From Spirochaetota bacterium (GTDB lineage: Bacteria > Spirochaetota > UBA4802 > UBA5550): a stretch of 17,379 nt of DNA. Shown piece by piece: positions 4,208 to 17,164 of this stretch. The stretch is from assembly GCA_050298055.1 (NCBI GenBank), contig JBNKTL010000065.1, positions 1 to 17,379 on the forward strand, given 5' to 3'. Within the stretch, counting starts at the first letter, position 1; each line of letters begins with the position of its first letter. The notes beneath the pieces are model-generated. The model had not been told where the DNA came from. It was given only the letters and a program-made list of their open reading frames with translations, and did no database searches. The position numbers were made by a program, and so were the translations under genes.

Positions 4208-4828
4208 TCAGCAGCCCTCAAGCTTCTTTTTCTTTTTCTTTTTCCTCTGTTTGGGTGTCTTCTTTTTGCTATCGGGCTCGCTTCCGGCACTCATCTCCGT
4301 ACCGCCGCCCCCGAAATAATTCGCCACGGCAACCCTTCCTTTGTAGCGGAGTACTTCATCATCCGTTATATTCACGGGTAGTTTCGGATTAAGAACTATC
4401 TTATTCCAGAGATTGAACCCCCCCTCAAGGACCAGAACGTCTACCCCGGCACTTTTTAATACCACCCATGCCTGGTGGGCATGGGAGTTCCCGTTAGAGA
4501 AGATCACAACCTGTTTGTCCGCAATCAGCCGTTCAAGAGTATCTTTTTTCAGAAGTTTTCTGAGGGGGATATTTTCCGCTTTTTTAATACTCCCATTCTT
4601 GTATTCCTTCGCCGTCCTGATGTCAACCAGCCTGAAATCGTTTTTTCCCTGGATTATCCATTCCGAAAGTTCGCCGGGGGAAACATGGTCATCTCTTTTC
4701 ATGATCTCTTCCGAAAGTTTTTCGGGATCGAAGGAGTATCTCCCCCTGTCCGGGCCCGGCAGGAAGAGCATGACAAAGGCCAGAACAAAGGCCACGAGCA
4801 CCCCGATCTCCTTGTTTTCAATTTTCAT
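4208..4828 (-). CDS. Membrane-anchored rhodanese-like protein lacking the active-site Cys, with a Lys-rich tail ending in Cys (…KKKKKKKLEGC)
   Basis: N-terminal hydrophobic helix and rhodanese signatures LVDIR..EY..G.I..A.NIP and LEGGFNLW. The active-site loop reads IFSNGNSHA (Ser, no Cys). RBS is AGGAGGAG. Confidence 0.85.
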   Translation of the reverse strand: MKIENKEIGVLVAFVLAFVMLFLPGPDRGRYSFDPEKLSEEIMKRDDHVSPGELSEWIIQGKNDFRLVDIRTAKEYKNGSIKKAENIPLRKLLKKDTLERLIADKQVVIFSNGNSHAHQAWVVLKSAGVDVLVLEGGFNLWNKIVLNPKLPVNITDDEVLRYKGRVAVANYFGGGGTEMSAGSEPDSKKKTPKQRKKKKKKKLEGC

Positions 4829-4845
4829 GATTCTCCTCCTGCATC

Positions 4846-5454
4846 CTATGATCGGGAAGTATTCCCGTTAAACTTCTCTTCAAGTTTTTCAGCACCCCAG
4901 AAACCGGAGAGGGCGATCATCATCACGATAAATCCCACCACTCCTGCCGACAGGCCGAAAAACTCGTATAGTGTAACGCGGCCCATGAAACCGCTGTACT
5001 TTCCTGAAAAGAATTCTTCAATATACGGCGATATTTCTCCGAAAACAAACATTCCCAGGAGAATTCCGCCTATGTAAAAATATGAATCCACCTTTAATGT
5101 TGCGGCACCCGCAACGCTTACACCGGGTCAATAACCGCTTAATATGAAACCGAATCCCATTATGAGCCCTCCCGCAAGCCCCGCCCAGAGATATGTGGGA
5201 TTGATTAACATCACATCCACGTTGAGCCAGCCGATTGAACTTAAAAGGATGATCCCGAACATCGCGGTAATAATGGCGGTAAACATGATCTTAAAAACGC
5301 TCATGTCCCTGAAATAGAACTGCATGGCAAGTTTCCGGGCATTGCCCATTCCCCCCCTTTCAACCGCAAAACCGAAACCGATACCGATGAGGAACGCAAG
5401 CAGGAAGTTGATCCCGTTACCCCATTCACTTATAACAGCTATTGGTGCAAACAT
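4846..5454 (-). CDS. YeeE/YedE-family sulfur-compound transporter subunit; probable selenoprotein (Sec at residue 109, GY-U-PG), 202 aa
   Basis: Track ORFs 5128-5454 and 4846-5091 are in the same frame and are joined by TGA (5130-5128) plus 12 sense codons: ...GFGFILSGY-U-PGVSVAGAATLKVDSYFYIGGILLG.... The TGA occupies the Cys position of the family G(Y/F)CPG motif and is followed by a SECIS-like hairpin. RBS AAGGAG lies before ATG 5454; the final stop is TAG. Confidence 0.88.
5095..5130 (-). promoter_or_regulatory. Bacterial SECIS-like element
   Basis: mRNA reads UGA-CCCGGUGUAAGC-GUUGCGG-GUG-CCGCAAC-AUUA. A perfect 7-bp stem (5115-5099) starts 12 nt after the UGA and has a G-initiated apical loop. 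UAA/UUA can extend the lower stem. Geometry and sequence resemble the E. coli fdhF SECIS (GGUUGCAGGUCUGCACC). Confidence 0.8.
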
Positions 5455-5500
5455 CTTTTACTCCTTCAACATGAGATTACTTCCGGAGAACCACCGGAGA

Positions 5501-6052
5501 CTATATCCACAGCTTCCTGACAAAATAGGCCAGGGAGTAGGCCCCCACAAACATCATCATCATGACCACCCAGCTCCCCAGGGCAAGGGAGGCGCCCCCG
5601 GTAAGGGCATTGCCGCTTGCGCACCCCCGGGCAAGCCGCGCTCCGAACCCGAAGAGAAATCCTCCCGCGGCGGCAAAAATCCATCTCTGCTTATTGGTTA
5701 TCCGGGGCCCCCGGTTTGTCTCAACTTTTATCCTTCCGGCAAACGCCCCGGAGATAAGTCCTCCCGCAAGGACGCCCAGTATTTCAAAGACCAGCCATTT
5801 CTTGAAGGGGTTTTTCTCACCTCCCCCGTAATGGGCAAGATAGGCGTTATTGTCCACATGGTCCTGGGACACGGCCTTCTCCACGGCCACAACCGCGCTC
5901 ATGAATGCCCCGGAGGCACCCAGCCCTCTTCCGGAAATAATAAATGAAGAGAGAAGTACCAGCCCCAGAAATACCCCGACGATATAAGGTGAGGCATATT
6001 TATTATTATCCATTGCCTTTAACTCCCGCTTTTTAGATTTTGAGGTCCCCAT
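5501..6052 (-). CDS. YeeE/YedE-family sulfur-compound transporter subunit (GCxSG type)
   Basis: Hydrophobic protein with SPYIVGVFLG, GRGLGASG and GGFLFGFGARLARGCASG motifs. An alternative start is ATG at 6013 (MDNNKY). Confidence 0.9.
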   Translation of the reverse strand: MGTSKSKKRELKAMDNNKYASPYIVGVFLGLVLLSSFIISGRGLGASGAFMSAVVAVEKAVSQDHVDNNAYLAHYGGGEKNPFKKWLVFEILGVLAGGLISGAFAGRIKVETNRGPRITNKQRWIFAAAGGFLFGFGARLARGCASGNALTGGASLALGSWVVMMMMFVGAYSLAYFVRKLWI

Positions 6053-6096: not shown

Positions 6097-7077
6097 TCAG
6101 TAGCTGAGCCAGGATGAGACCTGCCCCACCTCAAGAAAAATAAACCTTAAAAGAAGCCCTCCCGCGAGAACACAGGCGGCCGCATAGACCCCCGGGATGA
6201 CCCACCCTTTCAATTCCAGCCACTCAAGAAACGCCGGGATACTGAGACCGAAAGCAAAGATAAATATCCAGAAGATATGTGTAAACTCCCCTCCCAGGAT
6301 AAGACCGATTGCCTCCCTGTGTGGCCCGGCCGATGTGAGCATGCCGAAGATAAAGAGTGTCAGAATGAAAAGTTCCAGCCCGATAAATCCCAGGTCCAGC
6401 CGGGTAAAGAAATGTTTTTCCTTTTTATTCCGGCTGAAGAGAATGATAAAGGCGGCCCCGGTTGAAAGACCGGATACCAGGAAGAGGGGGCCAACAATGG
6501 CCGAATTCCAGAAGGGACGGGCCCCGAAAGAGCTGAGAAGAACCCCGGTATAGATCCCCAGAAGGACTCCGATAGGGAGAGAGGCCGCTGCGATCCGCTT
6601 CTTCTGCTTTTCCGCGAATTTGACCGATCTCTCCAGGAGCCCGGGAAACCAGGGAGGAATACTCTTTGGGGGAGCTTTAAGTTTTTTATAAACTTTGGGA
6701 AATCCCTTTCTCACGGTTCCCAGGGTCAGGAGTATACTGGAGGGGTAGACCAGGAGAAGGATCCAGGACCCCCATGACATTACGGAAGTGACCCTGAAGG
6801 TCGTGTAGAACCTCCAGACGGATACCTTGTGAGTAAGGTCCAGGAAGAGGGCCAGCATTCCCAGGGTCATGACCACCGGAACCGAAGCCACGATCCTGTT
6901 GGTTGAGAGGTGAAATTCCTTTCCTCTTTCGGTCAGAATCATATATGCGGAGAGAACAAGTATCCCGGCGGCAAGTCCCCCGAGAAAAAGATAGACAGGT
7001 ATCTCCCATCCCCATATCCCGAGAGATGTTCCCGGAACATGGGCGGCTTTGTTAGTGGTTATCGTTATCTCATTCAT
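6097..7077 (-). CDS. psrC: NrfD/PsrC-family integral membrane quinol-interacting subunit
   Basis: WGWEIPVYLFLGGLAAG, LFLDL and SVMSWGSWIL motifs with multiple transmembrane segments; follows the Fe-S subunit gene. Confidence 0.9.
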   Translation of the reverse strand: MNEITITTNKAAHVPGTSLGIWGWEIPVYLFLGGLAAGILVLSAYMILTERGKEFHLSTNRIVASVPVVMTLGMLALFLDLTHKVSVWRFYTTFRVTSVMSWGSWILLLVYPSSILLTLGTVRKGFPKVYKKLKAPPKSIPPWFPGLLERSVKFAEKQKKRIAAASLPIGVLLGIYTGVLLSSFGARPFWNSAIVGPLFLVSGLSTGAAFIILFSRNKKEKHFFTRLDLGFIGLELFILTLFIFGMLTSAGPHREAIGLILGGEFTHIFWIFIFAFGLSIPAFLEWLELKGWVIPGVYAAACVLAGGLLLRFIFLEVGQVSSWLSY

Positions 7078-7093
7078 TCTGTCACAATCCTCG

Positions 7094-7645
7094 CTATGAT
7101 AGATAGAATATATTGGGTCCGGTTCCCGCCCGGGGAAGGAGCGGCCTGTTTTTTCTTGTTTTCAGTTTTTTTGAGACCCCGCTCCGGGGATTTTCCATAT
7201 CCCCAAACTCAATACACCGGGTGGGACACACGGAAGCACAGGCAGGATCAAGGTTATCCGCTACCCGCCGGGAACAGAAGGTGCATTTTCCGGCATATCC
7301 TTCGGGGGTGATATACCGGGCATTGTAGGGGCAGGCGGCCATACACGCTTTGCATCCCGTGCATTTTCCCGGGTCAACTTTTACAATATTTGAATTCATA
7401 ACGGTATGACTGGCCCCCGTGGGACACGCCGAGACACAGGGAGCATTGGAACAGTGGTTGCACCTCTCGGACCTGATCTCCATGGAGAGGTCGGGGAATT
7501 TACCCGAGACCTCCTCCACAACCCATACCCGGTGAAGGCCTTCGGCAACCTCATTCTCGGTCTTGCATGCCATAACACAGGCGCCGCAGCCCACGCAGAG
7601 TTTTGTGTCAATTACCATCCCGTACCTTTTTTTTGATGATCTCAT
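7094..7645 (-). CDS. psrB: PsrB/PhsB/NrfC-type four-[4Fe-4S] electron transfer subunit
   Basis: Motifs CVGCGACVMACKTEN, CNHCSNAPCVSACPTGA, CTGCKACMAACPY and KCTFC...PACASVCPT; ATGA overlap with the psrA stop. Confidence 0.93.
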   Translation of the reverse strand: MRSSKKRYGMVIDTKLCVGCGACVMACKTENEVAEGLHRVWVVEEVSGKFPDLSMEIRSERCNHCSNAPCVSACPTGASHTVMNSNIVKVDPGKCTGCKACMAACPYNARYITPEGYAGKCTFCSRRVADNLDPACASVCPTRCIEFGDMENPRSGVSKKLKTRKNRPLLPRAGTGPNIFYLS

Positions 7646-9855
7646 ACACTCTCCTCGACTTTGAAAGTGACAAAATTTACCCTTATCCCGTTCCCCCCCA
7701 TAACCGGGTCCATGTTGATCTGTGTCATCAGGTCGCTGTCGGCCGCCCCTTTCAGATAGGACTTTTTCATCTGTTTCTGGGTATGGCCGAAACCATGGAC
7801 CATATACACGCAGTCGGGCCTGATCCTCTCGGTGACCTTTGCTCTTATCCTTCCGGACACAATACCGTCCTGGTTCTCAAGCCGGAGGTACTGACCGTTT
7901 TTAATTCCCCAGTCAAAAGCCACGCTGGTATGCATCCAGACTTCATTTTCCGGGTCTATCTGCACAAGAAGGGGATTGTTGGATGTCCTTCCAAAGGAGT
8001 GGGCGGGAGACCTGCCGTAGAGGAGCCGGTAATAATCCCTGTCAGGCTCCCGGTGTTTTTTATAGCGGGGGACGGGGTCAAAGCCATACTCCTCCAGGAC
8101 CCTGGAGTAGAGTTCAATTTTCCTGCTGTCGGTCCCGAATTCAAATTCTTCTCCCTTTCCCATATAGAGAGGGTCCCCGCTTTCCAGGGTCTTGACGCCG
8201 ATTTTTTTCATCTCTTTAAGGGAACTCCCCGCTTTTTTGAGCCTGAAGTCCAGGTACTCCTCCATAGTCTTCCAGGGGAAATACTTTCCGCAGCCGATTT
8301 TACCCGCAAGCTCCCTTGCCATCCACCAGGCAGGTTGTGTATGGAATTTTGGTTTTGCCGCCGGGGTCCGGACCGCGATCTGGGCCGTTCTGCCGGGAGA
8401 GACCCTGATATCGTCATAGCGTTCAAGATAGGTACATTCCGGCAGAACCACGTCGGCCCAGCCGGTAATTTCAGAGGGCATGGTGTCTATGACTACAAGG
8501 AGCTCGAGGTTATTGATCGCCTCAATAGTCCTCTTCCTGTTGGGAAGCGCCTTCATCAGGTTGGAGCCGTATACCAGCCAGCCCTTGAACAGGTTGTCCC
8601 GCCTGGCGGAAGGAATAGTCGCATCACATATTCCCGACGCAATAGCCAGGTTGGCCAGTTCCCATTTTCCGGGGAATTCCTCTTTCCAGCTTCTTCCCGG
8701 TTTCGGGAACTTCGGGTGGGGATAAGCGGGAACATGGGCCTTCCGGGGCAGGTAAAATCCCCCCTTTCTTCCCCAGGAACCCAGAAGGGCATTGAGGATG
8801 GCGTTGGCTCTGACCCTCTGGGTATCGTCACCATACCAGACATTGTGCCGTCCGGGGTGGACAAGGGTAGCGGGAGAATGTTTCGCCATTTCACGGGCTG
8901 TTTCCCTGATCAGTTCCGGTTTTATGGAAGTGATGGGATATGCCCATTCCGGAGTGTTTCTTCTTACCGCTTTTTTTAATTGATCAAATCCCCGGGTATA
9001 ATTTTCAACATACTCCCTGTCGTAGAGCTCCTCCCGGATAATAACATTGATCCAGGCAAGGAGGAGGGCGATATCAGTAGCCGGTTTAATAGGGAGCCAG
9101 TACCTGGCTTTACTGGCTGCCGTAGAGAAACGGGGATCAACGACGATCAGGGAAGCCCCCCGGGAGAGGGCCCGGGCAAATTCATTCACCTGCGCACTGT
9201 GGGTGTTTTCACCGATATGGGAGCCGATAAGGACGATGCACCTGCTGTTTTTCATATCGGTGCATTCGGGAGAGTTTATTGCCGCTCCGTAGGTAAAGAG
9301 ATATCCCTCTTCACGGGGCCCTCTGCAGTTTGCATATGAGGGGGCCGCGATGTTTTTAGATCCATAGCCCTTGAGCAGGGTCTTGAAAAAGGACCCGCCG
9401 GCCCCATGGGTGAAGAGGGCCATGGATTCCGGTCCATGTTTCTCCTTAAGCTTCAGCATTTTATCGGCAATTGTGTCGAGAGCTTCATCCCAGCTCGCTT
9501 CCCGGAAGACCTGCTTTCCTCTCTCTGAAGTCCTGATGAGGGGCTTTTTTAACCTGTCAGGGTCATTATAGGACCCGATCCCGGCTGATCCCTTGGTGCA
9601 GAGCCTGCCGTAACAGTGATTGTCACTCTCATTTCCGGTAATTTTCCAGAGCCTGCCGTTTTTTTTGTAAACCCAGCCGGCACACTTGAATGTGCACATT
9701 TCACAGTATGTGGGAGTCCGGGTAATTATTCCCGGCTTCTCTTCCGGCAGGGACTCACTGGATAAACTGCTCATGAGGCCGCCGGCTGCTGCGATTCCGC
9801 CGGCACTTATTGCGGTGATCTTAATAAAATCTCTGCGACTGAACTTTTTATTCAT
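7642..9855 (-). CDS. psrA: Tat-exported molybdopterin oxidoreductase catalytic subunit, polysulfide/thiosulfate reductase (PsrA/PhsA/SrrA) clade
   Basis: Tat motif SRRDFIK, FS0 motif CEMCTFKC...GRLCTKG, predicted Mo-ligand segment PSYANCRGPRE (Cys, TGC codon), VVDPRFS and ADVVLPECTYLER; 737 aa. The exact substrate cannot be determined by eye. Confidence 0.85.
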   Translation of the reverse strand: MNKKFSRRDFIKITAISAGGIAAAGGLMSSLSSESLPEEKPGIITRTPTYCEMCTFKCAGWVYKKNGRLWKITGNESDNHCYGRLCTKGSAGIGSYNDPDRLKKPLIRTSERGKQVFREASWDEALDTIADKMLKLKEKHGPESMALFTHGAGGSFFKTLLKGYGSKNIAAPSYANCRGPREEGYLFTYGAAINSPECTDMKNSRCIVLIGSHIGENTHSAQVNEFARALSRGASLIVVDPRFSTAASKARYWLPIKPATDIALLLAWINVIIREELYDREYVENYTRGFDQLKKAVRRNTPEWAYPITSIKPELIRETAREMAKHSPATLVHPGRHNVWYGDDTQRVRANAILNALLGSWGRKGGFYLPRKAHVPAYPHPKFPKPGRSWKEEFPGKWELANLAIASGICDATIPSARRDNLFKGWLVYGSNLMKALPNRKRTIEAINNLELLVVIDTMPSEITGWADVVLPECTYLERYDDIRVSPGRTAQIAVRTPAAKPKFHTQPAWWMARELAGKIGCGKYFPWKTMEEYLDFRLKKAGSSLKEMKKIGVKTLESGDPLYMGKGEEFEFGTDSRKIELYSRVLEEYGFDPVPRYKKHREPDRDYYRLLYGRSPAHSFGRTSNNPLLVQIDPENEVWMHTSVAFDWGIKNGQYLRLENQDGIVSGRIRAKVTERIRPDCVYMVHGFGHTQKQMKKSYLKGAADSDLMTQINMDPVMGGNGIRVNFVTFKVEESV

Positions 9856-10163: not shown

Positions 10164-10394
10164 TCACACAAGCGCGGTTATCCCCGTAAACTCCACCTCC
10201 CCTTCAAGGAGCTGCCGGATATTTTCCGTCTCGCCCTCACCGAACCTGATGCAAACCCCGCAGTCGGAGCTTATGTATTTGGGGACAGGGATAAGCTTAT
10301 GAGGGACCCTTCTCTCTCTCAATACCTTTTCAGCCTTCATGGCATGGCTCACAGATTTGAAGAGCACCACATAATATTTCCCGGCACTGCTCAC
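10164..10394 (-). CDS. DUF3343-family putative Se/S carrier protein
   Basis: F.SVSHAMKAEK..., LIPVPKYISSDCGVCIRF (CxxC); GTGA overlap with the yedF stop. This is a typical neighbour of YedF. Confidence 0.85.
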   Translation of the reverse strand: MSSAGKYYVVLFKSVSHAMKAEKVLRERRVPHKLIPVPKYISSDCGVCIRFGEGETENIRQLLEGEVEFTGITALV

Positions 10395-10999
10395 GGAGAG
10401 ACAAGCCTCCCCGCGCCGGTCATTGCACCGGCAATGTCGTACATGTTGGAAATATGCCCCGCGCCCAGTTCCTCTATCTTAAAGAAATTCGTGCAGGTAC
10501 CGCAGACGAGAATATCCGTCCCCTTCTCTTCAAGAAGAAGAAGGTCATCAACCACCGGCGAACCCTTTACCGCGAGCTTCACCCCGGAATTGTAGAAGAT
10601 AAGGCTCTCCGGAAATTCATCAAGCTCGGTGAGGGTGTGGATAAAACCGCGGACAAGAACATCACCCAGTTCATCATCTCCCTTTCCCATCCTGTTTGAT
10701 GAAATAACGACTACCAGGGGACCGGAACCGCTATTCTCAATATTGCACTCAGCCTGAAATTCCGTTTCGGCAACCTGCTTCTCTCCTCCCCGGGCCCCGG
10801 TCATGGTTACGGCGTAAATACCGCCTTCTTTTTCATTTATGGCCACACTGCATTTCAGCTTTGCACCCAGTCTCTTCAGGTTCTCAACGGCAGTAGTGTT
10901 ATCCACGCTTATCTCAATCCCGGAAGTTTCCTCCAGGGCTTTTTTCGCCAGAAGGACCGGCTGGGGACATTCAAGCCCCTTTGCGTCAATTTTTTTCAT
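10391..10999 (-). CDS. yedF: Selenium metabolism protein YedF (TusA/SirA domain plus DsrE-like domain)
   Basis: N-terminal IDAKGLECPQPVLLAKKAL (CPxP). C-terminal MGKGDDELG..L..FI..L, FYNSGVKL, LVCGTC and ISNMYDI. Confidence 0.9.
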   Translation of the reverse strand: MKKIDAKGLECPQPVLLAKKALEETSGIEISVDNTTAVENLKRLGAKLKCSVAINEKEGGIYAVTMTGARGGEKQVAETEFQAECNIENSGSGPLVVVISSNRMGKGDDELGDVLVRGFIHTLTELDEFPESLIFYNSGVKLAVKGSPVVDDLLLLEEKGTDILVCGTCTNFFKIEELGAGHISNMYDIAGAMTGAGRLVSP

Positions 11000-11013
11000 T
11001 TTTTGTCTCCGTT

Positions 11014-12174
11014 TTATAAATTATGATTTTTCGCAATTTCCCCGATGGCTTCACACGCCCTGTCAACATCCTCTTCGCTGTTAAACAATCCGGGACTTAG
11101 CCGGACAGTTCCTTCAGGATATGTTCCCATGGTCCTGTGGGCGGAGGGCGCGCACTGAAGGCCCGGTCTGGACATAATGCCATATTCTTCGTCCAGTTTC
11201 ATTGATACATCCGAGGGGCTCATCCCCTCAATATTAAAGGAGACCACCGGCATCATCCTTTCAGGATCACGGCTCCCGCAGAGCCTCACCCTTTCAATTC
11301 CGGACAGTCCCTTCAGCAGTCTTTCAACCAGGGCTGTTTCATGTTTCCTGATATTCTCAATGCCCCTCTCCAGCAGGTAAGCCGCTCCCGCATCCAGCCC
11401 GGCAATTCCCACGGTGTTGAGGGTCCCCGCCTCAAAGATGTCGGGCATAAAACCGGGATGGACCTCAGACTCGGAAAAACTTCCCGTCCCCCCTCTCAGC
11501 AGGGGCGTGATTTTACCCTCAAGGCTTTCATCTATGTAGAGGCCTCCAGTCCCCTGGGGGCCGAAGAGTGACTTGTGACCGGTAAAGGCCAGGAGTTTTA
11601 CCCCCATTTTTTTTACGTCGATATCCAGGGCGCCCGCGGTCTGCGCCCCGTCAACACAGAAGACCAGCCCCGCGTCACCGGCAATTTTCCCCGCTTCTTC
11701 AACAGGCATGATACCCCCCGTGACATTTGAAGCGTGGGTAAGATAGACCGCCCGTGTATTCTTCTTTATCTCTTTTTTTATGTCCGCGGGGTCCAGCTCA
11801 CCCCCCGGGGAGCACTTTACCACGCTTATTTCAACACCGGAACCCTCCAGGGCCCGCAGGGGTCTCATGACCGAGTTGTGTTCCATCCCCGAAGTGATAA
11901 CATGATCTCCCGGTTTCAGGAGCCCGGTTATGGAGATGTTCAGGGCTTCCGTGGCGTTCTTTGTGAAGATAATTCTCAGGGGATCATCCGCTCCCAGGAT
12001 ACGGGAGATCCTTTCCCTGCAGCTGTAGATAATTCTTGCCGCTTCTATGGAGAGCCTGTGCCCCGACCGTCCCGGAGAACCGCCGATCTCTTCCATGTAT
12101 CTTTTCATGGCACCGGGGACTTCTTCCGGCTTGGGCCACGTGGTGGCGGCATTATCAAGATAAATAAGGTTCAA
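11014..12174 (-). CDS. Class V PLP aminotransferase: cysteine desulfurase / selenocysteine lyase-like
   Basis: Motifs IYLDNAATTWPKP, MEHNSV, HASNVTG, DGAQTAG, FTGHKSLFGPQG (PLP Lys) and SRPGLQCAP (catalytic Cys). TTG start with GGAGAGGAG RBS. Confidence 0.93.
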   Translation of the reverse strand: MNLIYLDNAATTWPKPEEVPGAMKRYMEEIGGSPGRSGHRLSIEAARIIYSCRERISRILGADDPLRIIFTKNATEALNISITGLLKPGDHVITSGMEHNSVMRPLRALEGSGVEISVVKCSPGGELDPADIKKEIKKNTRAVYLTHASNVTGGIMPVEEAGKIAGDAGLVFCVDGAQTAGALDIDVKKMGVKLLAFTGHKSLFGPQGTGGLYIDESLEGKITPLLRGGTGSFSESEVHPGFMPDIFEAGTLNTVGIAGLDAGAAYLLERGIENIRKHETALVERLLKGLSGIERVRLCGSRDPERMMPVVSFNIEGMSPSDVSMKLDEEYGIMSRPGLQCAPSAHRTMGTYPEGTVRLSPGLFNSEEDVDRACEAIGEIAKNHNL

Positions 12175-12184
12175 TCTCCTCTCC

Positions 12185-13087
12185 TCATTTTTTTGTTCTC
12201 TGCTTCTTCAGTTTTTCCACAAAGACCTCCGCCTGTTCCGAGAGCCTCCTTTTATCCGAGAAGACAACATAGAAGTCCCGTTTTATTTTAAGCCCCTCAA
12301 CCCGGTGGACTTGAAACCTCCGGGGGCCCTCTTCATCCCCCATGGCGAGGCTTGAGATAAAGGAATAGCCCATACCCGCCATGACCGCCTGCTTTGCCCC
12401 TTCAGATGAGGAGCACTGGTAGACAATGTTCAGGTCAGAAGGGAGGATGCCGCCGGCGTTAAGGGCCTTTTCACAGGCATCACGTGTTCCGGACCCTCTC
12501 TCCCTGTTGATCAGGGGCAGGGATTTAAGCTTGTCCATGGGGATACTCTTTTTCCCTTCCGGGGGCCCGATCAGGAGTATCTCATCACTAAAGCAGCGCG
12601 TAAACTTAAGTCCGGGAAAGGCGATCTTTTTCCCCACAATCCCCGCCTCAACAGAACCCTCTTTCACAAGTTCTATGGCTTCACGGCTGTTTGCCGTCTC
12701 AACAGTGTAGGAGTAGTCAGGGTTTTCCCTGTAGATCTCTGCCACTATTTCCGGAAGAATATAGGTAGAGGGGATGGAGCTTGCGGATACCCGTACCGCG
12801 GTGCCGGGGATCCTGCTGCCCAGCCCGGTTTTCAGCTTTTCAACGCTCTCCAGGAGATTTTCGGCAAATTCCACAAAGATCCTACCGTCATCGGTAAGAT
12901 GAAGCTCCTTGCCCGCCCTGTTGAAGAGACGGATTCCCAGCACCTCTTCCAGCTGCGCCATCTGGTGGCTGATGGTAGACTGGCCGATCTTCAGCTTTCT
13001 CGAAGCCCGGGTGAAGCTCTTTTCCCCCACGATTGTGAGAAATGACCTGAGCTGCTTCAGGTCAAAATTTAATTCGGCTTTCTTCAT
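12185..13087 (-). CDS. LysR-family transcriptional regulator (CysL-like; Se/S-metabolism context)
   Basis: HTH region LKQLRSF...SFTRASRKLKIGQSTISHQMAQLE..LG..LF.R; substrate-binding domain with RERGSGTR. Confidence 0.93.
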   Translation of the reverse strand: MKKAELNFDLKQLRSFLTIVGEKSFTRASRKLKIGQSTISHQMAQLEEVLGIRLFNRAGKELHLTDDGRIFVEFAENLLESVEKLKTGLGSRIPGTAVRVSASSIPSTYILPEIVAEIYRENPDYSYTVETANSREAIELVKEGSVEAGIVGKKIAFPGLKFTRCFSDEILLIGPPEGKKSIPMDKLKSLPLINRERGSGTRDACEKALNAGGILPSDLNIVYQCSSSEGAKQAVMAGMGYSFISSLAMGDEEGPRRFQVHRVEGLKIKRDFYVVFSDKRRLSEQAEVFVEKLKKQRTKK

Positions 13088-13267: not shown

Positions 13268-13765
13268 TTATTTTTTATCCACACTGTACCCGGCTTCCTT
13301 CCAGCCCACGATTCCGCCGGGTTGCCTGTAGACATTTTTATAGCCCAGTTTCACCGCCCACATTGCGCCGTTGTGGCTCCGGGAACACTTTGTAAAACCG
13401 CAGTAGACCACAATGGTTTTCTCCGGGTTATCTCCCAGGAGTTTTTTATATGCCGCTTTCTGGTCATCTTTCATTTCTTTCAATTCGGGAATGGGAAAGA
13501 GAAAATTCACTGCCCCCGGGATATGGTTCTTGTCATAACTTTTTTCAGCGGGCATGGTATCAATGATAAGCATCTCTTTTTTTGAATCCATCCACTTTTT
13601 CAGCTCATCCGTGGAAACGATCTTATATCCGCCCCTGATGACTTCTTTGGCAAATTTTACAGCGCTCTTCTCAGTGGCCAGTTCACTTTTTGATTTGCCG
13701 CAGCCCGCAAGGGAAACGGCAAGTACAGCCACTCCCATGAAATACAATGCTCTTTTTATTTTCAT
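13268..13765 (-). CDS. Rhodanese-domain lipoprotein (exported sulfur/selenium transferase)
   Basis: Signal peptide with lipobox LAGC; IIDTMP..SY...HIPGA; active-site loop YCGFTKCSRS; PGGIVGWKEAG. RBS is AAGGAG. Confidence 0.9.
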   Translation of the reverse strand: MKIKRALYFMGVAVLAVSLAGCGKSKSELATEKSAVKFAKEVIRGGYKIVSTDELKKWMDSKKEMLIIDTMPAEKSYDKNHIPGAVNFLFPIPELKEMKDDQKAAYKKLLGDNPEKTIVVYCGFTKCSRSHNGAMWAVKLGYKNVYRQPGGIVGWKEAGYSVDKK

Positions 13766-14050: not shown

Positions 14051-14977
14051 ATGAAACTCAAACTTACAATCATTACCCTGCTTCTGATTATTTTACCGAT
14101 TAAGAATATCTATGCTGAAAAGCTGGCTGTACTGCCATTTTCCCAGAAACAGGGAATCAGCGACAGGGATTATAAACATATCTTCAAAGCTTTTTTGGAT
14201 AAGGTATCCGGGTTTCCTCAATTTGAAGTCATGGACCTAAAAAAAATATTTTCAATTTTTAAAGAGCATGAAATAGACCAGAAGGACTTTAAGTCTCTGC
14301 AGGATATCTCCAGGATAGGTAAATTGCTTGAAGTGGATTTACTGATAATCGGGAATCTTGGATTAAAGAACTCCAATAATCATACCGTATATACAATCGA
14401 ACTGCTCCTTATGGATGTAAAACGCAATATCACTCTCAATCATTTATCCTGGACTTATAATGTGTCAGGAAATATATTACATCTGGCAGAAAGCGCAGCT
14501 CTAAAGCTCTTATGGTTAAACAGAGATCTTTACCCTCTTTCAGTAAACCTCTACTCAGACCGAAAGAAAAAAACACCACTGCCTTCTATGAGAAAACTGA
14601 TACGGTACAAAATAAAAAATTTTAAATTGAATAAATACTGTGAAGTCGTGGCTGTTGATGCAATTATAAATGAGAAAAAAGGGATATCTACTTTAGGTTG
14701 TATCGGATGCATTACACTGGTTGGCTGGTTATTTTTACCGTCAGATGAAATAAAGACACATGTCGAAGTTAATATAAAGGTCCAGTATCTGACAAAACAG
14801 GGGATAAAAAACAGATCATTTTATAAATCCTATAAGAAAACCGAAAGCTTTAACATTTTTAGAAGTGAAAATAAGAAATTTGCTAACACATTCAGGTTAC
14901 TTGAAAGGACAATCAATGAAATTGAAAAAGAGATTAAATTAAAAATACCAGCAGCTGGAAGCAACAGGGAATTATAG
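14051..14977 (+). CDS. Secreted hypothetical protein with a possible CsgG/TolB-N-like alpha/beta N-terminal domain
   Basis: 308-aa ORF with a signal peptide (…NIYA|EK) and a 'LAVLPF…IGKLLEVDLLIIGNL' pattern; hydrophobic LGCIGCITLVGWLFLP segment in the C-terminal half. Confidence 0.6.
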   Translation: MKLKLTIITLLLIILPIKNIYAEKLAVLPFSQKQGISDRDYKHIFKAFLDKVSGFPQFEVMDLKKIFSIFKEHEIDQKDFKSLQDISRIGKLLEVDLLIIGNLGLKNSNNHTVYTIELLLMDVKRNITLNHLSWTYNVSGNILHLAESAALKLLWLNRDLYPLSVNLYSDRKKKTPLPSMRKLIRYKIKNFKLNKYCEVVAVDAIINEKKGISTLGCIGCITLVGWLFLPSDEIKTHVEVNIKVQYLTKQGIKNRSFYKSYKKTESFNIFRSENKKFANTFRLLERTINEIEKEIKLKIPAAGSNREL

Positions 14978-15099
14978 AATAAGATTTTAGAGAATATTAC
15001 ATCTGGCCTGGTTGAAATATGTGATTTTTTATATTTCTTTTCAAACATACATTTATATTGATACGACATTATTATGATTACTATAGGAGAATAATTTTA

Positions 15100-15732
15100 A
15101 TGAAAAAGAAAAAAATAATTATTATTACTATTTTTGTCTTTTTAACAAACACGAATTTTCTATTTTCAAAAACATTAAAATTTCCCCGTTTAAATCTTAA
15201 TTATGATTTAAACGAAGAATGGAAATATTATGGATTATCAAAAATATCAAAAACAAAATTTGTATATACTTTCAAACGAAAACCCATAAAAGACAAAATT
15301 GGAGAACCAATAATACCCGCAATCGTATTTTTATTTGAAAAATATAACAAGGATATTAGTCCAATACAATATTCTATAGCTAAACGTGTTCAATTTAATT
15401 TAAAAGAAATAAAATTATTAAAAACGTATATTGATAAAATTACTGGAATTAAGTCTGCTGTATTTTTACATGGTGAAAAAATAGATAAAAAATCAAAACG
15501 ACACCTTAGCTTTATACTATTTTCTTTTACATATGGAGAGCATGGCATAACAGTTATTTGTAATAGTACCAGTGATGTTATCAGTAAAGTTACAAAGGAA
15601 TTTATTGATTTAATAAAATCTATGAAAATAACTACAAATGAAAACATTATTGAAATAGTAGAAATGAATCACAATGGCATAATTAAAATAATGGATGTTA
15701 AAAACAATATTGGGATTGTAAAATCCAGATAG
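15100..15732 (+). CDS. Secreted hypothetical protein
   Basis: ATG at 15100 (MKKKKIIIITIFVFL, signal-peptide-like) follows RBS AGGAGA (15085-15090) and is preferred over the track's TTG at 15058. The ORF is long despite very AT-rich DNA. Confidence 0.7.
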   Translation: MKKKKIIIITIFVFLTNTNFLFSKTLKFPRLNLNYDLNEEWKYYGLSKISKTKFVYTFKRKPIKDKIGEPIIPAIVFLFEKYNKDISPIQYSIAKRVQFNLKEIKLLKTYIDKITGIKSAVFLHGEKIDKKSKRHLSFILFSFTYGEHGITVICNSTSDVISKVTKEFIDLIKSMKITTNENIIEIVEMNHNGIIKIMDVKNNIGIVKSR

Positions 15733-15943
15733 CTTTATTATTTCTTAATAGAAGGTAATGCATTGTGATCTTTTAGGATGCTTTCAATTTGCAAAAATAA
15801 TTAAGTACTTCATGATTCATTAATTAAAAGATACAGATTCCATTTGTAATTTTTTTTAAAGGAATAATGAGTAGTATACCGGAAGTCGAGCACTAGGGAG
15901 TTTTAAACGAACGGCTTAAGTGACTTAACAAGAGGAGATATCA

Positions 15944-17164
15944 ATGAATAAATCATCGACGTTTATGTTTTATTTTTTATTATTTTTTTGTATATCATGT
16001 AATAGAAATGAAAATTATTTGTATTTAAATAAATTTAGTGGCGTTGCATTATATTCAGGCAAAAGTTCAGGGAGTCCTGTTATTACATATATTCCATATG
16101 GACATAAATTGAAGTTATTGAAAAATGAAAAACTACTTAACAAAACCAAAAGTGGTGGCAGCATAACTGACTTATATCATATCACCTTTAATAATCATAC
16201 AGGCTGGATTTTTGAAAAACCTTCAAAAAGTAAGCCAGATATGAATCTTTATTATAAAGTTGTTACTGGAAGCGGCCTCTTTTTGAGAAAAGAACCTTCT
16301 GTTAATGCGAAAGCTATTCTCTTAATACCGTACTTATCAAAAGATAAAGTTTTAAAAATTAGTAATGTCTGGCATAAAATTGGAAACAAAATTGCTTTTT
16401 GGGCTAATGTAAGATATAAAAATTATACAGGATGGATTTTTACTGCTTTTGTGGAAATTCAATCTCTTGAATCTCTAAACAATAAAGATTTTCATGAGTG
16501 GAGTTATTATGATGATTTTAAATTTGATGAATTAAATAAATATGAAAAAATATCTGATTTAAGCAGTTATAATGTCAAGACTCATAATTACAATAATTTC
16601 CAAATCACTATTTGTAGTCCCAAGAAGCATAATATTGGTAATAATATATTATTACTTTTTAAAAATTTAAAAACAAATAAAACCTTTTACAGTGATAAAT
16701 ACTCAATAATTCATAAAATTCAATTTAACTATCCACTAGAAAACTCAGTGTTAATGAGAGTAAATTCATGTTCTTCTTGTGATGAATATGAATTTAATGA
16801 AGTGTTTTTACTGGAAGATAATTCTATTAAACATTTTAGTTTTGAAAGTACTAAATTTAATTCATTTTGCCAAAATAATTTTGGTATGTATGATCCAACC
16901 AATAATTATCGAATAAATAAAACAGATACAGAAAAAACATCATTATACATTTATAAAAAACATGTATCATGTAATGATAATTCAATAAAAAGTCCTCTAA
17001 TATGTTGTGAAGATAATTCATATTATAATAATAAATATTTTAATAATGAAATTTTTATTGTAATTAAAAATGTAAATGGGAAATTCACAAGTAATTTTAT
17101 AGTAGACTCTGGTGTTATGAAGGAATATGATAAAGAATGGTCTAGTTCAAAAATTTTAAAATAA
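15944..17164 (+). CDS. Lipoprotein with two bacterial SH3-like domains and a Cys-containing C-terminal region
   Basis: RBS GAGGAG; lipobox-like FFCISC; two repeats of the form SG(V/L)xL...P/S...IPY......(T)GWIF; C-terminal CSSC and CC. Confidence 0.75.
   Translation: MNKSSTFMFYFLLFFCISCNRNENYLYLNKFSGVALYSGKSSGSPVITYIPYGHKLKLLKNEKLLNKTKSGGSITDLYHITFNNHTGWIFEKPSKSKPDMNLYYKVVTGSGLFLRKEPSVNAKAILLIPYLSKDKVLKISNVWHKIGNKIAFWANVRYKNYTGWIFTAFVEIQSLESLNNKDFHEWSYYDDFKFDELNKYEKISDLSSYNVKTHNYNNFQITICSPKKHNIGNNILLLFKNLKTNKTFYSDKYSIIHKIQFNYPLENSVLMRVNSCSSCDEYEFNEVFLLEDNSIKHFSFESTKFNSFCQNNFGMYDPTNNYRINKTDTEKTSLYIYKKHVSCNDNSIKSPLICCEDNSYYNNKYFNNEIFIVIKNVNGKFTSNFIVDSGVMKEYDKEWSSSKILK

Follow-up and report, generated by a model that had tools for sequence, protein, structure and literature searches.

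A predicted selenocysteine codon in the N-terminal half gene of a split YeeE/YedE channel from a Spirochaetota bacterium

We found that a gene encoding one half of a split YeeE/YedE channel in a Spirochaetota bacterium carries an in-frame TGA. Judging from homologous sequences, this codon is very probably decoded as selenocysteine (Sec), which would make the gene a real selenoprotein gene that has been mis-annotated. The Sec site lies in the N-terminal half and would be a second, apparently unlisted site in a family already catalogued, by prediction only, as containing selenoproteins.

The reading frame, its partner gene and their surroundings

The window, by which we mean the whole 17,379-nt stretch of contig JBNKTL010000065.1 that was analyzed, contains on its minus strand a frame at 4846-5454 whose sole interruption is a TGA at 5130-5128. 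As the initial annotation had claimed, translating TGA as U gives a single 202-aa product in which one codon is recoded, U109, in the context ...ILSGY-U-PGVSVAGAATLKVDSYFYIGGILLG (motif GY-U-PG), and both the in-frame TGA and the read-through frame are confirmed. U109 is the only Cys/Sec residue of the protein. Under translation table 11 the same frame is cut into products of 108 aa (5128-5454) and 81 aa (4846-5091, GTG start), and the fragmentary annotation that had been predicted is indeed found in the database, whose entry for this gene (source NCBI) is the 108-aa product. An AGGAG sequence resembling a ribosome-binding site lies 7 nt upstream of the gene.

Taken together, the frame, Pfam, homologues and a family profile identify the product of 4846..5454 (minus strand) as a yedE-type N-half (PmpB-like, Cys91-type) subunit of a split YeeE/YedE channel. 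PF04143 covers residues 34-186 and thus spans the TGA (44.9 bits against a cut-off of 27), and model positions 2-149 and 163-309 correspond to the two adjacent half genes; no NCBIfam model scored above its own cut-off for the N-half protein. The partner (5501..6052, minus strand), assigned from Pfam and a profile, is a yeeE-type C-half (PmpA-like, Cys293-type) of 183 aa with a single Cys, Cys144, in RGCASG (codon TGC). The N-half family profile aligned U109 with Cys91 of StYeeE from S. thermophila (E 0.0015) and showed no equivalent of Cys22, while the partner profile best matched the C-terminal half of StYeeE that contains Cys293, with Cys144 at the Cys293 position. The profile comparison of the N-half with the C-half was weak (probability 1.3%). 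A PDB search with the single N-half sequence gave no match, the profile alone having matched. The AlphaFold model of the N-half is all-helical (pLDDT 79.9), and its top Foldseek match, YeeE 6LEP, is weak and non-significant (E 1.9, TM 0.50).

The N-half gene is the fifth of a six-gene run on the minus strand. The run begins with genes for a PsrA/PhsA-like molybdopterin subunit with a twin-arginine-like N-terminus (7642..9855; best NCBIfam match PhsA at 474.8 bits, below the cut-off of 694), a PsrB/NrfC-type 4Fe-4S subunit (7094..7645) and an NrfD/PsrC-type membrane subunit (6097..7077), the latter two identified by NCBIfam and Pfam. These are followed by the C-half, the N-half and a rhodanese-fold protein (4208..4828; Pfam and ORF) whose N-terminal segment is hydrophobic and whose Lys-rich tail ends in EGC. 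The only Cys of the rhodanese-fold protein is at the end of this tail, and an EGC or GGCG end is kept in many neighboring homologues, in the manner of a carrier arm. We considered Sec at this end as well (EGC-TGA) and rejected it, as the TGA there is an ordinary stop and homologous tails stop with TGA, TAA or TAG (39, 19 and 8, respectively, of 66 regular-expression matches, which include duplicates and some off-target hits). A second, all-Cys split YeeE pair is encoded elsewhere in the genome (C43:35791-39129, equivalent to L215:791-4129), behind a multi-heme cytochrome gene, and here a rhodanese-like domain with the end GGCG is fused to the N-half.

Located 300 nt upstream of the operon, and on the same strand, are selenium-metabolism genes (10164..13087; NCBIfam and Pfam) encoding a LysR_Se-like protein that scores just under its cut-off, an SclA-like PLP enzyme, YedF and DUF3343/Se_S_carrier. 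This cluster lacks selD, which is on another contig. Further upstream, 13268-13765 (minus strand) encodes a lipoprotein-like rhodanese; it is akin to the N-terminal part of the selenoprotein TsoB, though at 97.5 bits the match falls far short of the cut-off, and it has Cys in an uninterrupted frame. In addition, 14051-17164 (plus strand) holds three long ORFs without an NCBIfam match, one of them with an SH3_3 domain. An Rfam scan of the whole window gave no match, and promoter and terminator counts in the window were near chance.

Decoding signals and the state of the site in homologues

In bacteria, Sec-tRNA is delivered to UGA by SelB bound to a hairpin. The four genes that the initial annotation proposed to look for are all present in the genome (4.7 Mb, 98% complete): selA, selB and the tRNA-Sec gene (selC) lie together on contig C5, and selD, itself with a TGA, is on contig C39. 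The profile scores of selA, selB and selD exceed their cut-offs. A sequencing error had been named as a possible source of the TGA; two further samples from this study retain it in their contigs (X2 record 4600-5783 and X3 record 5022-5211), with strain differences elsewhere and none at the codon, these being assembled contigs, not raw reads. Of two more runs compared, X7 spans the codon, with its differences listed in part, and the RNA run X4 does not reach it.

A SECIS-like hairpin was identified by folding and a positional scan at 5099..5115 (minus strand), exactly where it had been claimed. After a 12-nt spacer, a 7-bp stem formed by GUUGCGG (5115-5109) and CCGCAAC (5105-5099) encloses the loop GUG (5108-5106), which places a G at +20 after the UGA. 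Compared with dinucleotide shuffles, its stability was not significant (z -0.2 to -0.6). In a 71-nt fold that included the UGA, a rival pairing with UGA-proximal bases was the minimum-energy structure and the pair probability of the stem was ~0.45, rising to 0.8-1.0 once the fold omitted the UGA together with the 9 nt after it, which the ribosome would cover. By our own scan, which is not bSECISearch, a loop-G hairpin of equal stability lies at +17 to +22 after 17 of 4468 TGAs in this genome (0.4%) that terminate stop-free runs of at least 100 codons. An element of this type also follows the TGA of the genome's selD, with its loop G at +18. The hairpin is therefore unusual by position and unremarkable by stability, and constitutes weak evidence when taken alone.

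The hairpin scan of the genome also returned two FdhA-type (formate-dehydrogenase-type) genes (C22:5890-8619 and C22:26872-30054) and one MsrA gene (C4:72438-73202) with in-frame TGAs and hairpins. In addition, two paralogues encoding PhnD-like ABC substrate-binding proteins (PF12974, 55% identical) have an in-frame TGA at a common column and a similar hairpin. These are C67:12530-13378 (plus strand; L207) and C16:50182-51033 (plus strand; L208), with KNL-U-TVF and KNV-U-TIF, respectively, in the order listed. No close homologue was found in 121 other genomes of the class, and the available portions of the text of a 2026 selenoprotein review (PMC13188914) contain no phosphonate/PhnD entry. From their sequences, these genes may possibly represent an unlisted selenoprotein family.

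The best named homologues of the N-half protein are from Spirochaetes, and, in agreement with the expectation of the initial annotation, the UGA column is occupied by Cys in 120/120 full-length homologues (those listed of 475 found), among which it is the only conserved Cys column. At the nucleotide level, 181 matches covered the site, corresponding to 134 loci that are distinct in their downstream 45 nt: 65 with TGC, 51 with TGT, 18 with TGA and none with TAA or TAG. The 18 of 134 should not be read as a frequency, because TGA-flagged loci were fetched on purpose; an unselected search of the class gave TGA in 3 of 28 matched places. Three of the 18 TGA loci come from the window's family, and the others from phylum samples centered on Thermodesulfobacteriota (9), KSB1 (3) and Calditrichota (3). 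Other in-frame stops were seen among the matches (L105, L147-L149, L202, L205), none of them at site 109.

UGA followed by a hairpin, which had been put forward as a supporting observation, was found at 15 of the 18 TGA loci, compared to 21 of the 116 Cys loci (loop-G, bulge-free, -5 kcal/mol or better; rows are related and not independent). The three carriers that failed this strict bulge-free test (L117, L119 and L120) are near-copies of two passing loci with an identical 6-bp stem. The register of the stem differs between lineages, and G009 has the register of the present locus with bases that are changed yet paired. We detected selA in 15 of the 18 carriers and did not find it in G014 (65% complete, with a TGA-bearing selD), G741 and G991. 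Since selA is widespread in the class (100 of 122 genomes), its co-occurrence with the TGA is weak evidence, being necessary and not discriminating.

Relaxed selection on the downstream half, which the initial annotation had named as grounds against Sec, gave way to signs of purifying selection. The frame is open for 84-302 codons beyond the TGA in 18/18 carriers, and downstream of the TGA pN is well below pS (e.g., 0.031 vs 0.163). When TGA-TGA and Cys-Cys pairs were compared in matched bins, downstream identity was essentially equal (80.7 vs 80.2%, 62.9 vs 60.7% and 49.0 vs 44.1%). Together, these observations remove the objection of relaxed selection.

In a tree that included 17 TGA rows (L201 was dropped as too short), 8-9 changes between TGA and Cys were needed, 4 of them forced by strongly supported branches; the tree is unrooted, and gains and reversions are not separated in this count. 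A single origin of the TGA was rejected, one TGA clade being excluded by the AU test (p=0.0027). Thus, the swap between Cys and Sec happened, or was undone, repeatedly. In the tree, Cys orthologues intermingle with Sec orthologues, and both have the operon in common, with the PsrA-like gene adjoining 11 carriers, this locus included; it was not found in the fetched DNA of carriers L154 and L200. As the closest homologues (65-70% identity) carry Cys despite residing in selA-positive genomes, Sec is not required for function. The partner has Cys in 17 of the 18 N-half TGA carriers (one is unscored), and conversely the N-half has Cys in 5 loci where the partner carries the TGA, a sample too small to support a rule that Sec never occupies both halves.

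Short database homologues also tend to end just before the site. Among the 120 listed of 200 homologues of 30-104 aa, 81 have GGY as their last residues, and at most 5 proteins share any other end position. Those with names belong to Candidatus Rokubacteria and one planctomycete, and one member of a 90% cluster of GGY-ending proteins continues as GGYCPG. Proteins of 105-110 aa were outside both search length ranges, and the 108-aa entry of the present gene is thus uncounted. In a search of representatives, 2 of 150 short proteins ended at GGY. We also scanned viral contigs for the stop codon of the GGY-ending proteins and obtained only five 15-residue matches, which were omitted. Many database entries can thus be flagged as candidate cuts at a Sec codon.

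A proposed role and its alternatives

If decoding follows the established route, SelB on the hairpin 12 nt downstream would bring Sec-tRNA to UGA109, the machinery being present, and the 202-aa product would build a two-gene YeeE/YedE channel together with the 183-aa product of the gene upstream, the former as its N-terminal and the latter as its C-terminal half. That the two halves form a heterodimer is highly likely by alignment and by analogy with published relatives. In YeeE, C293 is at the periplasmic entrance and C91 and C22 are towards the cytoplasm, with C91 and C293 reported as essential (PMC7449682). The present channel would have only two pore chalcogens, an outer one, Cys144 of the partner, in place of Cys293, and an inner one, Sec109, in place of Cys91. 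Its likeliest job would be to carry sulfane sulfur, as polysulfide or persulfide, through the inner membrane in the service of the periplasmic PsrABC-type reductase encoded alongside it. The C-terminal Cys of the tethered rhodanese may load the outer Cys, a role suggested by the fusion of the N-half to a rhodanese in the second, all-Cys copy. The more nucleophilic Sec would then bind the sulfur briefly as a selenosulfide before passing it to a thiol in the cytoplasm. Reasoning from relatives, we consider a relay of sulfane sulfur by the Sec/Cys pair, including its substrate, direction and covalent chemistry, to be somewhat more probable than the alternatives combined, and the same measured preference applies to the whole explanation, a Sec/Cys two-gene channel serving a PsrABC-type reductase.

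Alternatively, and with a smaller though still appreciable chance, the protein may be a TsuA-like selenoprotein, that is, a channel that conducts thiosulfate or another small sulfur anion non-covalently and in which Sec is a near-neutral substitute for Cys. The structural study of StYeeE proposed an S-H-S hydrogen-bond relay or channel, which is non-covalent (PMC7449682), and the interleaving of Cys and Sec orthologues with an identical operon is in line with a near-neutral swap. However, the N-half has no Cys22 equivalent and no adjacent TsuB/YeeD, the TsuA model scores 21.9 against a cut-off of 400 bits, and the split relatives that have been assayed, YedE1E2, take up zero-valent sulfur in a manner that needs both halves and both Cys (PMC10812762).

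The properties of Sec also bear on this question. Sec is more nucleophilic than Cys and donates hydrogen bonds less well, a selenol being largely ionized at neutral pH, and for this reason we favor a covalent relay over the hydrogen-bond model of the structural study. Repeated selection of Sec likewise favors covalent chemistry. Natural Cys and Sec orthologues that are 65-70% identical and share an operon make the choice between the two mechanisms testable.

A connection to selenium itself seems unlikely, though it is suggested by the selenium-metabolism cluster 300 nt upstream on the common strand. In that case the Sec form would handle selenide or polyselenide produced by a PsrABC-type selenite reductase and would feed the LysR_Se, SclA, YedF and DUF3343 genes, and a YedE-like protein has been reported in selenium transport in Methanococcus (PMC11582611). 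However, none of these four genes had a match in the 14-kb and 18-kb loci of carriers L150 and L155. The selenium-type YedE/FdhT model (NF033796) does not match the N-half and gives the partner 39.8 against a cut-off of 350, and the Cys version of the operon occurs in L016, L029 and L031, from genomes where selA was not found.

It is highly improbable that the TGA is a true stop, whether in a pseudogene, in a two-piece gene that restarts at GTG 5091 or through an assembly error. Gene callers do end the protein there, TGA often serves as a stop elsewhere in the genome (it terminates 653 of 2071 long ORFs), and an intact all-Cys paralogous pair exists on C43. Nevertheless, TGA recurs at the one conserved Cys across four phylum samples with neither TAA nor TAG in 134 loci, it is kept in the two other assemblies, the downstream sequence is under purifying selection, and the GTG restart is not conserved in carriers, being ATC, ATT and ACA in L035, L036 and L118. 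Reading of the TGA as Trp or Cys, by a changed code or leaky read-through, is barely credible even though the frame would be open under such a code, given that the only TCA-anticodon tRNA is tRNA-Sec, that tRNA-Trp has the anticodon CCA, that TGA ends about a third of the long ORFs and that column 109 is never Trp in the 120 listed homologues.

Returning to the covalent relay, we offer a broader reading that is speculative and, on balance, doubtful: split YeeE channels may be covalent chalcogen relays with a widespread, uncatalogued second Sec site, either pore Cys having been repeatedly upgraded to Sec, and in large clades such as Rokubacteria a selenosulfide shuttle embedded in the membrane may link the cytoplasm to a polysulfide (or polyselenide) reductase in the periplasm and to a rhodanese arm with a Cys tail. 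If this were true, the 104-aa "fragments" of Rokubacteria would be users of such a shuttle.

Comparison with catalogued selenoproteins and known channels

The initial annotation described a hidden selenoprotein and left open whether its subfamily was already catalogued. For the family it is: YeeE/YedE is listed among predicted selenoprotein families, with WP_012471001.1 as its single representative (PMC13188914, PMC9312934), the 2026 review gives the motif of this thiosulfate transporter family as GUxSG (PMC13188914), and a 2016 survey counts 5 YeeE/YedE selenoproteins in a supplement row, with no mention in its main text as far as consulted (PMC5029168). The representative reads ARLADG-U-PSGHG and is a C-half (Cys293-type), as are two further examples with G-U-PSGHG (PMC12013277 supplement). 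For the N-half and its site, the description as hidden stands: the GY-U-PG form is absent from the lists compared, in the portions available of PMC13188914, PMC9312934, PMC5029168 and PMC12013277, and from literature searches, and other recent surveys may list it. The main text of the GOS paper cited for the family (PMC2398784) contained no match.

The catalogued C-half Sec form was also recovered here, in loci where the N-half has Cys. The partner-type half carries the TGA in L050, L053, L142 and L145-L148, within DG-U-PLGH or DG-U-PSGH, which is the catalogued form; its PLG variant does not fit the GUxSG motif as listed. As described in the sources consulted, the catalogued selenoprotein (PF04143) resembles the present one in being a half-size subunit in which Sec replaces the single pore Cys, and in being predicted only. 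The two differ in that Sec is in the C-half of the former, whereas here the Cys91-type N-half carries it, in GY-U-PG, and the C-half has retained Cys (TGC). The N-half gene thus belongs to PF04143 and is of the split, PmpAB/YedE1E2-like kind, distinct from the catalogued GUxSG form. With regard to decoding, the genome's selD and fdhA-type genes similarly have UGA followed by a hairpin of the 6-bp class with the loop G at +18 to +20; their products, unlike the N-half, are soluble enzymes whose Sec sites have long been known.

TsuA/YeeE of Spirochaeta thermophila and E. coli (PDB 6LEO, 8J4C) belongs to the same family, with U109 corresponding to Cys91 and the partner Cys144 to Cys293. However, TsuA/YeeE is one chain of 330-350 aa with three Cys and a TsuB/YeeD partner and serves thiosulfate assimilation, whereas here there are two chains with one Cys or Sec each, no Cys22 equivalent and no adjacent YeeD. 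The neighbors are instead NrfD-type and rhodanese genes, and a TusA domain first appears 5 kb away, in YedF. Closer in architecture are PmpA/PmpB of Serratia and YedE1E2 of Cupriavidus pinatubonensis, which are likewise two adjacent half genes with one conserved Cys each, PmpB and PmpA being the N and C halves of YeeE, respectively (PMC11582611). Those proteins are ~130 aa with four helices, while the present ones are 202 and 183 aa, one of them with a predicted Sec, and the present pair sits in a psrABC-rhodanese operon.
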